This document shows, piece by piece, positions 2,899 to 13,858 of a stretch of DNA of 64,000 bases (positions are counted from its first letter, which is position 1; every line of letters begins with the position of its first letter). Source of the DNA: a virus; IMG/VR virus record IMGVR_UViG_3300020202_000062, positions 32,001 through 96,000 of that record, one strand, 5' to 3'. The translations under genes and the position numbers were made by a program. The notes under the pieces are model-generated. The model was not told the DNA's origin, did not search any database, and saw only the letters and a list, made by a program, of their open reading frames with translations.

Positions 2899-3651
2899 AT
2901 GGCGTCAGAAGAGTTCGATGAACAAGAGGTTATCAATCTGATAGCCCAGGCTCTGGCTGATGGAGGTGCAAGTGCTCTACAGCCAGAGCGAACTCTTCCA
3001 CTAGCCTTCAATGACAGCAGGTTATTGGAAGTTCTGGCAACAAGGCTTCCTAAGTATGTACCTGTTCCAGACGTGCAAGTCATACTAGATGAACTACGAG
3101 ATGAACTGTACTCGGATGTAAATCTAGGCACATTGAAACAACTCCATATCATAGCGAAGAACTGTAGAAGATGTCCCGCTATGATCCCAGAGCCGCAAAT
3201 GCCACAATGGAACCTAGTGGATCCAGATGTGGTTTTTGTTTTAGATCAGCCAACTAATCACAAAGAGTCTATAGATCTCTTCGTATCAACACTGAAAAAG
3301 GTTGGCTTCTCCTCCTCGCGAATTATGTTGACCTATGTCAACCGCTGCTCGATGCAATCACGACAGCGTCCAGGCGCTGAGGAAATCAAGAAGTGTACTC
3401 CGTATCTGTTTGCTGAGTTGCAAATAGTCCGTCCGAAGTTGATCATGCCCCTAGGTCTTGTGCCTACAGCGGCGATCCTAGGAACAGATGTCAAGTTAGC
3501 AGATGAGCGAGGACATCTCTGTTGGCTAGGCCCTTGGGCGATTCTTCCTACCGTCAGTCCGTCTTACGTACTGAAGGGTGGAGGACACATCAAGGAGAAT
3601 TTTGAACAGGACATGCAACAAGCCTTTAACTACCTTTACGGAGAGAAATAG
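2899..3651 (+). CDS. Uracil-DNA glycosylase family 4-like protein
   Basis: CRRC, 'TYVNRC', 'RPGAEEIKKC', 'RPKLIMPLG', 'PTVSPSY'. Confidence 0.75.
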   Translation: MASEEFDEQEVINLIAQALADGGASALQPERTLPLAFNDSRLLEVLATRLPKYVPVPDVQVILDELRDELYSDVNLGTLKQLHIIAKNCRRCPAMIPEPQMPQWNLVDPDVVFVLDQPTNHKESIDLFVSTLKKVGFSSSRIMLTYVNRCSMQSRQRPGAEEIKKCTPYLFAELQIVRPKLIMPLGLVPTAAILGTDVKLADERGHLCWLGPWAILPTVSPSYVLKGGGHIKENFEQDMQQAFNYLYGEK

Positions 3652-4360
3652 TGTCAGAAGAAGAATTTAATGCGTTAGTTCAGAAAGACGTACGTCATGG
3701 ATGTACAGAAGATGAACTTAACGTACTCAAGGCGAACTTACGTGAGTGGCTCTCAGAACTAAACGCACTTAAGCGAGACGTTGAAGTCCAGTTAGGCGCA
3801 CAGAAGTCTAGAGTCTCGGCCACCCATGCAGAGATGCTCGAAAATGGATCATCTAAGGCTGATTGGCTGAAGTATAAGTCCAAAGAAGACTCATGGCGAA
3901 CAAGCGCAGTTCGATTTATGGTGTCAGTAGAGCAACGGATGCTACACGTCAAGAATCTACGAGCCGCAGCAAACGGTAACACGAAGGTAATGACTGCTTA
4001 ATGTATAGACTGTCTGACATTTCAAAGAGTGGCAATACAGTGCCGTCTAATATGTCGGACACAATGTACAATGAGTTGAAACGAAACTCTATGGGCTGGC
4101 GCTACTACTCAGGCAAGCCCATAGAACCCATAGCGGAAGCATTCATAAACATGCACGCTGCGCTAAACTCTTCTCTGGGTTATGTCTATGGCCCACGTCC
4201 TGCTTTTATAATAAGATCTGATAGAATTGAAGGCTTGATCTATGCCAACGGAGCAGTTGTGTTAGGTCGCCACAACAATTATTTAGAGTTCTGGATCGCA
4301 GAAGATACCGCAAAGCTGTTCAGGTATCCAGACCCAGAATCTTTTACTAATTAACTTCAT

Positions 4361-8035: not shown

Positions 8036-8731
8036 ATGCAAGAGGAAAGTAAGTTAGTTAAGTATCCTCGTACCATGCACCTACCGTGGTCTCCTGGCTT
8101 ACAAAACGATGACAGAGTGATAGAAGATCTGTCAGTCCTAGAATCTTGTGACGATGTAGTAGTCACAGAGAAGATGGATGGAGAGAATACTACTCTCTAT
8201 TGCGATACGGCTCATGCTAGGTCTTTGACGAGCGGCCCGCATCCATCTCGCGCCAAAGTCAAAGAACTCTGGCAAAGTCTCCGTTGGGATATTCCCCCAG
8301 GTATGCGTATCTGTGGTGAGAATATGTACGCAAAGCATTCAATCTATTATGACAGCCTCAGATCCTACTTCCTCGTCTTCAATATCTGGCTCGGAGATGT
8401 ATGTCTCTCCTGGGAAGATACAATTCTCTGGTGTGGACTTCTCGGACTCGATACAGTCCCTGTCCTATACCGTGGCAAATGGAACGAATCAGTCTGGTCC
8501 GATCCATATCATGCCGAGCGGTGGATTCGTCAAGGGCGAGATGATCATGACGGTGGCTCCGAGCGGGAAGGATTTGTTGTCCGACTGGCTGAAGAAATAC
8601 GGCTTGACGACTTCGGAAGAAGTGTGGCCAAGTATGTACGCAAAGGTCACGTACAAACAGACGAACACTGGATGTCGCAGGAAATCACGCCAAATAAACT
8701 AAGTGCGAACGTAGATAAAGATATCTACTAA
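8036..8731 (+). CDS. ATP-dependent RNA ligase (Rnl2-like family)
   Basis: 'KYPRTMHLPWS', motif I 'TEKMDGEN', 'GENMY', 'EGFVV', 'AKYVR'. Confidence 0.88.
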   Translation: MQEESKLVKYPRTMHLPWSPGLQNDDRVIEDLSVLESCDDVVVTEKMDGENTTLYCDTAHARSLTSGPHPSRAKVKELWQSLRWDIPPGMRICGENMYAKHSIYYDSLRSYFLVFNIWLGDVCLSWEDTILWCGLLGLDTVPVLYRGKWNESVWSDPYHAERWIRQGRDDHDGGSEREGFVVRLAEEIRLDDFGRSVAKYVRKGHVQTDEHWMSQEITPNKLSANVDKDIY

Positions 8732-9604: not shown

Positions 9605-9679
9605 GCGGGTGTATCTCGGCGGTTAGAGCAACTGAATTTTAATCAGTTGGTCGGGGGTTCAAATCCCTTACGTATCGCG
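9605..9679 (+). tRNA. tRNA-Lys(UUU), degenerate acceptor/D stems (possible pseudo-tRNA)
   Basis: ACTGA-ATTTTAA-TCAGT; T arm GGGGG-TTCAAAT-CCCTT; acceptor stem imperfect. Confidence 0.6.
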
Positions 9680-9809: not shown

Positions 9810-9885
9810 GCACGTGTAGCTCAGTGGCTAGAGCAGACGGCTCTTAACCGTAAGGTCGCGGGTTCGAATCCCTCCACGTGTACCA
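9810..9885 (+). tRNA. tRNA-Lys(CUU)
   Basis: Loop CTCTTAA; acceptor GCACGTG/CACGTGT; ends ACCA. Confidence 0.9.
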
Positions 9886-9901
9886 AAAGAACAGGAAAAC
9901 C

Positions 9902-10420
9902 ATGTCGCAACTATACGATCCCACAAGAATCGACCTGAAATTAGATCCGTTCGAGATGCGGATGACAGGTACAGCAAGGCACGGAATGGTGCCCTTCGAT
10001 GTACCTTACATCTCAGAGATCGCAGACAATCTATTCCAGGGCGGATGTGCTAACGATCTACTACTGCCTGAGAACATCAAGCATGTAGTGTCGCTGTACA
10101 AATGGGAAGCATATTCCTGCGAACATGAGTTAGATTCTGTAACTGTCGTTACTATGTACGATTCAACGTCCACACCAATCAATAGAGATCAGGTTGTGGC
10201 ACTGGCAAACTGGGTGAATGTCTGTCGTAAGACTGGACCTACCTTAGTTCATTGTCAGGCTGGTTTGAATAGGTCTTCTTTGGTCGCGGCGCTTGCCCTG
10301 ATCTTGGGGGATGGTTTGACTCCTGAGGAAGCAATTGCTACCCTCAAGGAGAGGAGATCACCTGCTTGCTTATGCAATCATGTGTTCACTGAATGGCTAC
10401 TTGAAGAGAAGTATAAGTAG
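9902..10420 (+). CDS. Dual-specificity protein/polynucleotide phosphatase
   Basis: CX5R motif 'VHCQAGLNRS'; start moved to ATG 9902 because the track start lies inside the tRNA. Confidence 0.88.
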   Translation: MSQLYDPTRIDLKLDPFEMRMTGTARHGMVPFDVPYISEIADNLFQGGCANDLLLPENIKHVVSLYKWEAYSCEHELDSVTVVTMYDSTSTPINRDQVVALANWVNVCRKTGPTLVHCQAGLNRSSLVAALALILGDGLTPEEAIATLKERRSPACLCNHVFTEWLLEEKYK

Positions 10421-10565: not shown

Positions 10566-10621
10566 GGGCTAGTCGCATTGGTAAATACTAGTTGTTGCGG
10601 GTTCGAATCCCGTCTAGTCCA
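10566..10621 (+). ncRNA. Minimal tRNA-Ala-like RNA (acceptor stem + T arm, no D/anticodon cloverleaf)
   Basis: GGGCTAG/CTAGTCC with G3:U70 and A73; GCGGG-TTCGAAT-CCCGT; only 24 nt between acceptor 5' strand and T stem. Confidence 0.7.
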
Positions 10622-11106: not shown

Positions 11107-11895
11107 ATGCGAATCATGATGGCAGGCGACACACATAGCAACTTTGAGCAGTGGGAGTACCTATTCCCCATCGCTAAGGACCTTAACGTTGATGTCATCA
11201 TGCAACTCGGAGACTTTGGATACTGGGCGCACACCAAGGGTGGACTTAACCACCTTGATGCTCTACACGATCTTGCTGTAGAGTACGATATCCCAATCTA
11301 CTGGCTGGATGGCAACCACGAGAACCATGTGCACCTACGGGTGAACAGGATCGCAGTATGGAATATGTTCTGTCTTATGGCAGGCGTAGATCCTGGGCCA
11401 TTCGTCCCGATCCGCGGCACGCATATTGTGCACACGCCGCGGGGTGCAACCTGGGAGTGGGACGGCGTTAAGTTCCTAGCAGTTGGCGGTGCGTTCAGTA
11501 TCGACAGAGGCTGGAGAGATGTTGGGGAGTCCTTCTGGTTTGAAGAGGAACTCACTGACGCTGAAGCAGACTATGCTTCTAGAGTTGGGAAGGTCGATGT
11601 GCTGGTGTCACACGACGTTCCGATGGGCACGGATATGGCGTACATGTTCATCCGACAGGGTAGGTCGTACAGACCTATTCCGCAGGCTGAACCTAACCGC
11701 CGACGCTTGAGGCAGGTGGTCGAGGCCACGAAGCCTAACTACATATACCATGGCCATTACCATATCTGCTATAAGAACTACCTCGAACTTAATAGCGGAC
11801 ACACCATTGTCGTCATGGGCCTCGGTGCTGATGGGATGGAACAGGATTCCTGGACTATTCTTGACACTGAGGACTTGACAAATCCGGTTGGATAG
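11107..11895 (+). CDS. Calcineurin-like metallophosphoesterase
   Basis: GDTH, LGDFG, DGNHEN, SHD, HGHYH motifs. Confidence 0.92.
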   Translation: MRIMMAGDTHSNFEQWEYLFPIAKDLNVDVIMQLGDFGYWAHTKGGLNHLDALHDLAVEYDIPIYWLDGNHENHVHLRVNRIAVWNMFCLMAGVDPGPFVPIRGTHIVHTPRGATWEWDGVKFLAVGGAFSIDRGWRDVGESFWFEEELTDAEADYASRVGKVDVLVSHDVPMGTDMAYMFIRQGRSYRPIPQAEPNRRRLRQVVEATKPNYIYHGHYHICYKNYLELNSGHTIVVMGLGADGMEQDSWTILDTEDLTNPVG

Positions 11896-11903
11896 TTTAC
11901 TAT
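11875..11903 (+). promoter_or_regulatory. Consensus housekeeping-sigma promoter for the Pth2-like operon
   Basis: TTGACA-N17-TACTAT. Confidence 0.8.
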
Positions 11904-12306: not shown

Positions 12307-12600
12307 ATGACTGAAATGGAACTTAAGGCTGAAGTAGCATCACTCCGAAATGAGTTAGCAACACTTCGTGACCTGATTGCAGGCGGCGATCTAGCGTCTG
12401 GCGTAAACCGCCTAGCACAAAAGATCGAACGTCAGCGTCAGGCTCTTGATAGACTGCACACCCGTGTGGTCAATCAGCGTTTCCACCTTCGCACTCTCGA
12501 TGAGTTAGGCCGCGGTCTAACCAAGGATGAGTACGAAACGGCTCGTGCAGCAGTGACTAACGAGCAGGTTAAGGATCGTCTAGTAGGCGTCATCGCTTAA
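12307..12600 (+). CDS. Helical hypothetical protein coupled to the Pth2-like gene
   Basis: 97 aa, coiled-coil-like, strong SD inside the hairpin. Confidence 0.75.
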   Translation: MTEMELKAEVASLRNELATLRDLIAGGDLASGVNRLAQKIERQRQALDRLHTRVVNQRFHLRTLDELGRGLTKDEYETARAAVTNEQVKDRLVGVIA

Positions 12601-12662
12601 CCAATAGTGCCAGGTCAGACAGATCTAACGTAAAGTCGAGAATTGTAACTGCTGGCACTCTC

Positions 12663-12762
12663 GCCCCGGTAGCTTAACGGTAAAGCAGCGGATAAAGAGA
12701 CTCAGTATCTCACGGTTTGGGTCTCTCCGTCGATGGTGGTTCGAATCCACCCTGGGGCACCA
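12663..12762 (+). ncRNA. tRNA-like RNA with extended anticodon arm
   Basis: Normal acceptor, D and T arms, ends ACCA; 33 nt with an extra 9-bp hairpin in place of the 7-nt anticodon loop. Confidence 0.75.
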
Positions 12763-12763
12763 T

Positions 12764-12831
12764 GGAAGAAATAGTGTAACCCGGTAGCACAGGCGACGGC
12801 CAGGCGAGGTTCGAATCCTCATCTTCCACCA
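12764..12831 (+). ncRNA. tRNA-like RNA with truncated anticodon arm
   Basis: GGAAGA/TCTTCC-ACCA; D arm GTGT/GCAC; T arm GAGG-TTCGAAT-CCTC; anticodon arm reduced to GGC-GACG-GCC. Confidence 0.7.
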
Positions 12832-12832
12832 C

Positions 12833-12939
12833 GCCCCGATAGCTTAGTGGGAAAGCCTCTTTCTGGATCCTGTGAGGCTAGCAGGGAAAGGTTAGAGTAG
12901 CGCGCAAACACGGAGGTTCGATTCCTCCTCGGGGTACCA
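12833..12939 (+). ncRNA. tRNA-like RNA with 55-nt replacement of anticodon/variable region
   Basis: GCCCCGA/TCGGGGT-ACCA; D arm GCTT/AAGC; T arm GGAGG-TTCGATT-CCTCC. Confidence 0.72.
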
Positions 12940-12940
12940 A

Positions 12941-13082
12941 GAGCCTGTAGTGCACGCCGAAGCGTGACGTAACATGAGTAGCCATACGAATCCTAGGCCA
13001 CCCTTATGGCGAGGGGTGTTACGGTAGTGGGAGCACGACCGCCAGAAAGCGGTTAGGATGGGTTCGAATCCCATCAGGTTCA
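12941..13082 (+). ncRNA. tRNA-like RNA with ~79-nt structured D-loop and 6-nt anticodon loop
   Basis: GAGCCTG/CAGGTTC-A; D stem GTGC(12950)/GCAC(13033); ACCGC-CAGAAA-GCGGT; ATGGG-TTCGAAT-CCCAT. Confidence 0.7.
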
Positions 13083-13597
13083 CATGAAAACTAAAATAGA
13101 CAGAGACCTTTTATCAGAGTTAACAACCAGTACAGAACTTGAAGGCTGGACAGTGCTTCAGGATAAACACCTTCGCAACAAGAGGTGGACTGAACAGCGG
13201 CGCATCGTCCTAACCAATCCAGAGTTCCCTGGCATATGGGCTTTCGATTATGAAATTGGACTTACCGAGATGCAGGACTTCTCTTGGTATGACCACTACC
13301 CAGAAGAGATAGAGTTGTTCCAGGTTGTACCTAGAACAGAAACGGTAATGGTGTATGAAAAAGCCCCTGTGGAAGAGCACGATAGTAATCTGGACTGAGT
13401 TCGATCCATACGATACAGAGATCGACACTCTAGCGTGGCACGCAATGGAAGGCGACGGGTATTGTTCGCGCCACATTGCAGATCACATAGCAGATCCAGA
13501 GTCAGATCCCGATTGGGATGGAACAGAATTCTTCTGGGATCCAGAAGAGTAAGGCTTGAGGTAGGGTGTTCGGGTGTGTGCGCCCTGCCTCAAATTT

Positions 13598-13669
13598 GCT
13601 TCGGTAGTTCAATGGTAGAACAGCGCCCTCTAAAAGCGTATGTTGAGGGTTCGAATCCCTTCCGAGGCG
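13598..13669 (+). tRNA. Amber suppressor tRNA (anticodon CUA)
   Basis: Acceptor GCTTCGG/CCGAGGC; D arm GTTC/GAAC; loop CTCTAAA (CTA at 13630-13632); T arm GAGGG-TTCGAAT-CCCTT. Confidence 0.88.
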
Positions 13670-13674
13670 CTCAA

Positions 13675-13858
13675 GATCACGTAGCTCAGGTGGATAGAGC
13701 AGCGCAAAAACGGAGGCGTGGTATCTAGAGAAGGTTTGCGGATGCACCGGGACCGGGCCGCATGCAGTAATGTATGTGGTTGGGGAACCTTAGCCCCCGG
13801 CAGGGAAGCGCGTTATCCTAACTCTAGCGTTGCGGAGGTTCGAGTCCTCCCGTGATCA
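13675..13858 (+). ncRNA. tRNA-like RNA with ~121-nt insert in the anticodon arm
   Basis: Perfect GATCACG/CGTGATC-A; D arm GCTC/GAGC; T arm GGAGG-TTCGAGT-CCTCC; GCGC/GCGT stem closes the insert. Confidence 0.72.

Follow-up and report, generated by a model that had tools for sequence, protein, structure and literature searches.

Among the closest described systems, the RNAC and RNAD of phage T4 are made from tRNA precursor transcripts, and the ends of the bacterial YrlA RNAs lie in the stem that binds the protein Ro60. The tRNA gene cluster of T4 encodes RNAC and RNAD (species 1 and 2 RNAs) as two small stable RNAs without an assigned role (PMC3014915). The YrlA RNA of Mycobacterium smegmatis can be cleaved by RNase P and can receive CCA (PMC4201824), and the tRNA-like module of YrlA has no free CCA end (bioRxiv 10.1101/312249). 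Phage tRNAs with altered anticodon loops, for their part, escape anticodon nucleases (PMC10264068, PMC11555353). Here, we describe six tRNA-shaped elements in the genome of a soil actinophage, located in or beside a flush array in a stretch of 64,000 nt (hereafter the window), which corresponds to bases 32001-96000 of the 158.9-kb IMG/VR virus record IMGVR_UViG_3300020202_000062 (completeness estimate 75%). We consider it probable that they are genes for non-decoding tRNA-shaped RNAs with a tRNA-like maturation, element 5 being a chassis that carries a cargo and elements 1-4 being lineage-specific mimics.

An initial annotation, made from the sequence alone, had pointed to four back-to-back elements separated by 1-nt spacers, and re-reading the sequence returned the same spacing and coordinates. 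The six elements are as follows.

Element 1: 12663-12762, + strand (frame 12663-12759, then CCA); Rfam tRNA score 55.7 bits, fold z = -3.87.
Element 2: 12764-12831, + strand (65-nt frame 12764-12828, then CCA); anticodon arm of only 3 bp with a 4-nt loop.
Element 3: 12833-12939, + strand (frame 12833-12936, then CCA); Rfam tRNA score 43.2 bits.
Element 4: 12941-13082, + strand; fold z = -2.95.
Element 5: 13675-13858, + strand, 184 nt; member of a conserved RNA family, 182.5 bits to the covariance model R1.
Element 6: 10566-10621, + strand, 56-nt mini frame; acceptor 7/7 with G3:U70, A73, canonical T arm.

We scanned both strands of the whole record for frames made of a T arm (5-bp stem, UUCRA loop) and a 7-nt strand pairing with an upstream 7-mer. 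Every frame is on the + strand and, apart from one weak exception, inside a tRNA cluster, and all six elements were recovered; the same scan gave no T arm/acceptor frame on the - strand of the record. Because the frames are confined to one strand and almost all to tRNA clusters, they cannot be put down to chance.

The elements had been described as keeping the acceptor stem, A73 and T arm, three of them with CCA and none with a 7-nt U33 loop, and a scripted check agrees. Elements 1, 3, 4, 5, and 6 have 7/7 acceptor pairs and 5/5 T stem pairs; element 2 is weaker, with 6/7 and 4/5. A73 is present in all six and CCA is encoded in elements 1-3, while C74 is found in every tRNA gene and odd frame of this genome among the frames listed. 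Compared with a canonical tRNA, the acceptor stem, the discriminator and the UUCRA T arm are thus present, with the stated reservation for element 2, and none of the six elements has the canonical 5-bp stem with a 7-nt U33/purine-37 anticodon loop. The loops at the anticodon position of elements 1-5 measure 33, 4, 9 (or 7 without U33), 6, and 10 nt, and element 6 has none.

ARAGORN called none of the six elements. Against the Rfam tRNA model (RF00005, gathering threshold 29 bits), element 1 (32 nt inserted in its anticodon loop) and element 3 pass only with the decoding arm skipped as an insertion, element 6 stays below at 25.9 bits, and elements 2, 4, and 5 have no match to this model. The comparison with Rfam proposed at the outset (tRNA, transfer-messenger RNA (tmRNA), YrlA, group I introns) was divided in its outcome: elements 1 and 3 score as tRNA in this way only, no tmRNA or intron match was obtained, and YrlA was reached at 30.5 bits only.

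In element 1, a 5-bp anticodon stem leads through a 4-nt bulge to a 12-bp hairpin with a 4-nt loop, which gives the 33-nt "loop". Element 3 resembles a paralogue of element 1, with near-identical acceptor and D arms; its anticodon arm is a long bulged rod without a U33 loop and its variable region is 14 nt. The D loop of element 4 houses a structured three-way insert of 79 nt, and the 5-bp anticodon stem of this element ends in a 6-nt loop. Element 6 has neither D arm nor anticodon arm. It lies 63 nt past tRNA-Ala(tgc), of which its acceptor stem is nearly a copy, G3:U70 included. The alanyl-tRNA synthetase AlaRS recognizes minihelices, and the acceptor features of element 6 would suffice for alanine charging.

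The architecture of element 5 differs from the one first attributed to it. Its insert had been thought to remodel the anticodon loop, yet these approximately 100 nt sit at the variable-loop position and emerge after a hairpin of 4 bp that keeps the anticodon position. Its parts are the following.

Anticodon-position hairpin: 13702-13719, + strand; 4-bp covarying stem, 10-nt A-rich loop, 98% of cells paired.
Pseudoknot 5' strand (loop bases): 13709-13712, + strand; pairs with 13811-13814.
Insert closing helix: 13725-13730 with 13822-13827, + strand; 6 bp, 5/6 pairs change on both sides.
Near-invariant core of about 75 nt: 13736-13813, + strand; encloses one variable hairpin, often with a GNRA-type cap.
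Pseudoknot 3' strand: 13811-13814, + strand; immediately past the invariant core.

We aligned 39 distinct sequences of this family with MAFFT (alignment A4) and modelled nine helices comprising 45 pairs. In this alignment 87.5% of cells pair, and this share drops to 32-51% once the 3' partners are shifted by 1-3 columns. Covariation scores 0.418 versus 0.07-0.12, and none of 500 shuffles reaches any of the measures. Changes on both sides affect 7/7 pairs of the acceptor, 4/5 of the T stem and 4/4 of the anticodon-position stem, and these stems are 98-100% paired. The closing helix is paired in 67.5% of cells, a figure that is probably lowered by MAFFT misalignment. The conservation and covariation that had been sought in relatives are therefore present for element 5, with 39 homologues, both-side changes in 30 of the 45 modelled pairs, and a near-invariant core. 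This core is nearly unchanged across hosts of several actinobacterial orders, and because two independent search motifs were used, its invariance is not mere ascertainment. Its own fold is beyond the power of covariation.

Of special interest is the loop at the anticodon position, which throughout the family is 8-12 nt long and A-rich with a conserved ACG. It pairs with the bases right after the core, usually as AAAACG with CGUUUU, and four independent lineages have altered both strands jointly.

L013 and L026: ACACG/CGUGU, A-U to C-G.
L040 and L044: AGAC/GUCU, A-U to G-C.
L021 and L023: AAAGC/GCUUU, A-U to G-C, one position over.
L019: AAGCG/CGCUU, A-U to G-C, at the same shifted position as L021 and L023.

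One uncompensated mismatch exists, in the Gilson type only. A "longest helix" statistic gave 4.79 observed versus 4.04 in shuffles (maximum 4.59), but it discriminates poorly because A-rich and U-rich strands pair easily, and the pseudoknot is supported by the position-specific compensatory changes and not by this statistic. Since the loop pairs with the post-core bases, the anticodon position is locked in a pseudoknot and no anticodon can be presented. A second crossing pair, which had been suggested between the loop of the G/C hairpin and a segment before the core, is not supported: one of its strands does not vary and the other forms no more than 2-5 pairs. The same G/C hairpin loop is a tolerated expansion site, as an extra hairpin occurs at the same point in Satis, in Kradal and in the second L039 copy. 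L039 is a single Streptomyces genome with two family copies (169-355 and 3474-3686); a further copy has the coordinates L008:2479-2711.

The 39 homologues come from Streptomyces phages of two unrelated groups, from IMG/VR and metagenome contigs, and from 17 actinobacterial genomes. With blastn, ten Gilsonvirus records from nine phages matched the insert at about 80% identity, in unannotated gaps of tRNA regions, and a second search detected the family also in the unrelated 186-kb Satis/Kradal group. Exact-motif scans added further IMG/VR contigs and 17 soil or rhizosphere metagenome contigs. The 17 actinobacterial genomes were found with a second, different motif and belong to Actinoplanes, Paractinoplanes, Kitasatospora, Streptomyces, Streptosporangium, Planotetraspora, Microbispora, Herbidospora, and Frankia, plus the Kineosporiaceae. 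Six large Streptomyces plasmids match too and stand outside the A4 alignment. All exact-motif matches are from Actinomycetota, their phages and their plasmids.

The initial annotation did not recognise a described family, and neither do we: Rfam 15 has no match for element 5 nor for the carrier loci put through it, and the literature searched, with most subscription journals outside it, contains no description. In the annotated records inspected, the family is either unannotated or, in Streptomyces phage Moab, overlapped by a hypothetical open reading frame (ORF). This ORF, gene 140 (L003:3042-3374, "hypothetical protein"), is probably a mis-call. The model R1, built from the family, gives at most 43.5 bits to every frame and tRNA of the genome other than element 5, which places elements 1-4 outside the family. 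Element 5 itself combines all the family traits, namely the tRNA frame, the variable-loop insert with its core, and the pseudoknot between loop and 3' junction.

Many family copies lie within tRNA arrays of 16-35 tRNAs. Others are solitary, and three of these have a downstream terminator-like hairpin. Across four genomes and two plasmids, we found no conserved protein neighbour of the solitary copies, whose surroundings are listed here.

Planotetraspora: AbiEii-type toxin gene and Gp49/HigB-like gene.
Kitasatospora: large serine recombinase gene.
Microbispora: sulfotransferase, LysE and NRPS (non-ribosomal peptide synthetase) genes.
Plasmids: hypothetical genes.

The core is invariant and no protein partner is conserved, which suggests that all these hosts share the partner; to judge from these sequences it is probably a universal cellular machine. 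In Planotetraspora, the AbiEii-family nucleotidyltransferase toxin gene (L057:5098-5790) lies about 900 nt upstream of the solitary copy, a single case; relatives of this toxin family modify tRNA acceptor ends. Other family-bearing arrays also hold tRNA frames that were not called, either with inserts of 98-136 nt or as 59-nt mini frames.

Uncalled odd frames: L005:5645-5742; L017:4038-4135; L038:1809-1936; L038:4496-4554; L029:4860-4995.

Elements 1-4 present a different picture. Conservation in relatives, also expected for them, was found in position and not in sequence: blastn of the whole array against phages and plasmids returned no sequence homologue, nor did the fetched loci, and what relatives possess are syntenic analogues with other odd loops. 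Two features upstream of the array define the locus.

97-aa ORF: window 12307-12600, directly upstream of the leader and array; homologues found.
Leader hairpin: 12606-12657, + strand, between the 97-aa ORF and the array.

In L050/L051, L052, L053, and L063, an ortholog of the 97-aa ORF is followed by a leader and by a flush array of tRNA frames, as here. These arrays are rich in frames with 4-, 5-, 6-, and 9-nt loops, with intact acceptor and T arms and many with CCA.

L053 array: frames with 6-nt, 5-nt, and 4-nt loops.
L050/L051 array: 6-nt and 5-nt loops, a normal tRNA-Arg, then a homologue of the ORF located 3' of element 4.
L052 array: a mini element and a 6-nt-loop frame.
L063 array: a suppressor, two normal tRNAs, a mini element and a 9-nt-loop frame.

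The second-position elements of L050 and L053 are short, like element 2, and have 5-nt loops. In its acceptor, D and T arms and variable loop, L052:1475-1543 corresponds to element 1, whereas its anticodon arm, with a 6-nt loop, is unrelated; its acceptor shows a compensatory change from C4:G69 to A4:U69. These comparisons indicate that the decoding arm is replaced rapidly while the tRNA body is preserved, which is unlike neutral decay.

The leader of L053 is identical over 52/52 nt, though the adjoining protein shares only 65% identity. The closing stem has another sequence in L050, L052, and L063 and still pairs (by eye), and an ACGUAA-like motif is shared. This hairpin may act as a processing signal, form part of a promoter or be a small RNA in its own right. 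An amber-suppressor tRNA(CUA) lies 3' of the 97-aa ORF homologue in L045:1969-2115, L054:3693-3767, and L063:756-829, a recurrent linkage. IMG/VR searches with the 97-aa, 104-aa, and metallophosphoesterase ORFs found distant loci only (L007, L054) and no comparable arrays, and a homologue search with the ORF downstream of the array returned the query alone.

Concerning the genomic setting, Streptomyces phages are the closest cultured relatives for part of the sequence, and a protein of the record is found, the same, on a 235.9-kb contig. ARAGORN detects 26 tRNAs and a tmRNA (genome 11218-11593) in the record, arranged in two clusters. A gene that we take to be Pth2-like lies amid the tRNA genes of the window, together with the following.

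Rnl2-type RNA ligase: window 8153-8638, within 8036-8731, interleaved with tRNA genes.
Dual-specificity phosphatase (DSP): window 9878-10420, among the tRNA genes.
Calcineurin-type metallophosphoesterase: window 11107-11895, among the tRNA genes.
Amber suppressor tRNA: window 13598-13670, in the same cluster as the elements.

Amid tRNA genes, this ligase, phosphatase, and metallophosphoesterase resemble an RNA/tRNA repair set. Two further frames were noted. One, of 115 nt (genome 8674-8788, about 23.3 kb upstream of the window start), has a 7/7 acceptor and two complete T arms and sits flush between tRNA-Ser(gct) and tRNA-Ser(tga). The other (window 9608-9677) is a weak tRNA-Lys(UUU)-like frame with a 7-bp anticodon stem, a 6/7 acceptor, 32 bits in Rfam and no ARAGORN call, and is probably a decaying or variant tRNA.

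On the anatomy, conservation, covariation, and synteny observed above, we can build a proposal for how the elements may be expressed, processed, and used. A strong promoter-like site occurs at 11875-11903 and no + strand terminator separates it from the array, which makes it probable that the array is co-transcribed with the Pth2-like operon and with the surrounding tRNA/tRNA-repair cluster. The units would then be cut out as tRNAs are: RNase P would make the 5' end and trimming the 3' end, where CCA would be retained or added. Such a maturation is probable because the acceptor stem, A73, C74, the D/T elbow, and the flush spacing are all kept. In element 5, a pseudoknotted cargo of about 75 nt would grow from the variable-loop position and pair with the anticodon-position loop, and the function would be located in this locked cargo domain. 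Elements 1-4, and perhaps 6, would be lineage-specific variants at a hot-spot where the anticodon arm has been replaced repeatedly, and their function would more likely lie in a tRNA body that is offered without a cleavable or readable anticodon.

Bacterial defences cut or modify tRNAs, and phage tRNAs counter them (PMC10264068, PMC11555353, PMC12445682, PMC12851939, PMC13056530). By analogy, elements 1-4 might be decoys or competitors for tRNA-binding host factors such as tRNA-targeting defence nucleases, our preferred reading for them, though one that we put forward tentatively and hold to be somewhat improbable. The ligase, phosphoesterase, and Pth2 genes around the elements would fit a context of tRNA damage. 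With a confidence that falls just short of even, we further propose that element 5 represents a widespread uncatalogued RNA class, spread by actinophages, linear plasmids and tRNA arrays, which would act on some universal machine that handles tRNA, be it the ribosome, a tRNA enzyme or a defence that targets tRNA, and that the neighbouring fast-evolving frames would form a phage tRNA-decoy "library".

Several observations weigh against our main interpretation. The fold of element 3 (z = -0.65) is no better than that of shuffles, and the acceptor and T stems of element 2 contain mismatches. As far as can be read from these genomes, the conservation of elements 1-4 is positional only. The element 5 family is rare: an even sample of 150 other Actinomycetota genomes had no full-length R1 match, which indicates an accessory, patchily distributed gene. 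Across 151 Actinomycetota genomes, a count that includes seven unpublished ones (G006, G023, G053, G087, G093, G125, and G153), the R1 matches are mostly ordinary tRNAs. Finally, the solitary chromosomal copies, in their unrelated neighbourhoods, do not point to a role in phage defence.

Part of this evidence would also suit the idea that elements 1-4 and 6 are decaying tRNA pseudogenes that keep some of their stems, with element 5 alone being functional. We judge this unlikely, while giving it more weight than any other alternative. Elements 1-4 have no sequence homologues, element 2 (6/7 and 4/5) and element 3 have the weaknesses just mentioned, element 6 resembles a copy of the neighbouring tRNA-Ala shortened by deletion, and window 9608-9677 holds a clearly weakened Lys-like frame. 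Decay would be expected to strike all stems alike, however, whereas four of these five elements keep 7/7 acceptor and 5/5 T stems and three keep CCA. Only the anticodon/D domain is altered, the new sequence is itself paired, and relatives share this bias at the same locus, with compensatory acceptor changes. The argument against random decay made in the initial annotation is therefore sustained by the paired replacements and the kept terminal stems, and is weakened by elements 2 and 6, which are possibly decay; these two, as well as window 9608-9677, could be decaying copies.

Some of the frames (elements 4 and 2, and the 5-, 6-, and 9-nt-loop frames of relatives) might instead be charged tRNAs that decode abnormally, for example frameshift suppressors. 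In several arrays of actinophages and actinobacteria, ARAGORN gives "???" tRNAs whose anticodons have 2 or 4 bases, three elements encode CCA, and an amber suppressor tRNA belongs to the same cluster. Against this, the short loops have no common U33/purine-37 pattern and are wholly different at orthologous positions, and elements 1, 3, and 5 are unable to present any anticodon, making this explanation quite improbable.

It is more doubtful still, to the point of being very improbable, that the inserts are introns whose removal gives ordinary tRNAs. They do interrupt otherwise good frames, and the phage encodes an RNA ligase. Yet no group I, other intron or ribozyme family was matched in Rfam at E up to 5, no bulge-helix-bulge (BHB) motif is present, and the search for RtcB was negative. 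The group I introns of bacterial tRNAs are about 200 nt or more, and the inserts, at 26-121 nt, are shorter. In element 1, no single excision would restore a 7-nt U33 loop, and the earlier expectation that the inserts are not excised is upheld there on sequence grounds; for elements 3 and 5, excision finds no support from Rfam, insert size or BHB bulges. Element 5 moreover has its insert in the variable region, with a core that varies far less than the tRNA body does, the reverse of what an intron would show.

Equally improbable is that the elements are Y-RNA-like (YrlA class) partners of the Ro60 protein: YrlA RNAs mimic tRNA and occur in actinophages (PMC4201824), and a weak Rfam YrlA match (30.5 bits) covers 13637-13706, but this match is far under the 69-bit cut-off and runs across two neighbouring genes, the record gave no TROVE/Ro60 gene, and of five carrier genomes two have no TROVE match and three have one on another contig or more than 3 Mb away. 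Such weak YrlA matches (30-31 bits, including those at carrier loci) are artefacts, arising from a T arm and the D arm of the next gene. An identity as tmRNA was also rejected, with no tag reading frame and no match to Rfam tmRNA (RF00023); the phage has its tmRNA elsewhere.

If our preferred reading of the elements as genes for non-decoding tRNA-shaped RNAs is correct, phage tRNA clusters, usually seen as serving to supplement codon use or to replace cleaved host tRNAs, would also encode RNAs that have a tRNA body and do not decode. Such genes are missed by tRNA finders and annotators or covered by spurious ORFs, as with Moab gene 140. From phages to plasmids and chromosomes, the element 5 family shows the conservation of a ribozyme or riboswitch core, although the inspected records carry no annotation for it. 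Its cultured carriers, the Streptomyces phages Gilson, Forrest, and Satis and several Streptomyces and Actinoplanes strains, make it directly testable, and its study may help with the 50-year-old question of the role of RNAs such as T4 RNAC and RNAD.

Like RNAC and RNAD, the elements would be non-tRNA RNAs encoded in a phage tRNA cluster, a likeness by analogy; the T4 RNAs belong to another host and phage lineage, and the element 5 family is found in plasmids and bacterial chromosomes as well. YrlA and the other bacterial Y RNAs (RF02553) are comparable in that they do not decode, have a true tRNA-like elbow and are known from actinobacteria and actinophages, but the elements have their ends in the acceptor stem and no linked Ro60 gene. 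The tmRNA resembles them in that its acceptor and T arm come with no anticodon and the lower half of the tRNA gives way to a large pseudoknotted body; the elements differ from it in having no tag frame and variable acceptor stems, with G3:U70 only in element 6. The phage tRNAs that escape nucleases are likewise genes of tRNA clusters whose anticodon loops diverge under tRNA-targeting defences, but they still decode and have 7-nt loops, whereas the present elements cannot decode. Neither T4 RNAC/RNAD, nor YrlA, nor the tRNA-like domain of tmRNA is the element 5 family, which belongs among the tRNA-mimic non-coding RNAs and is the most valuable and most directly testable part of this locus.

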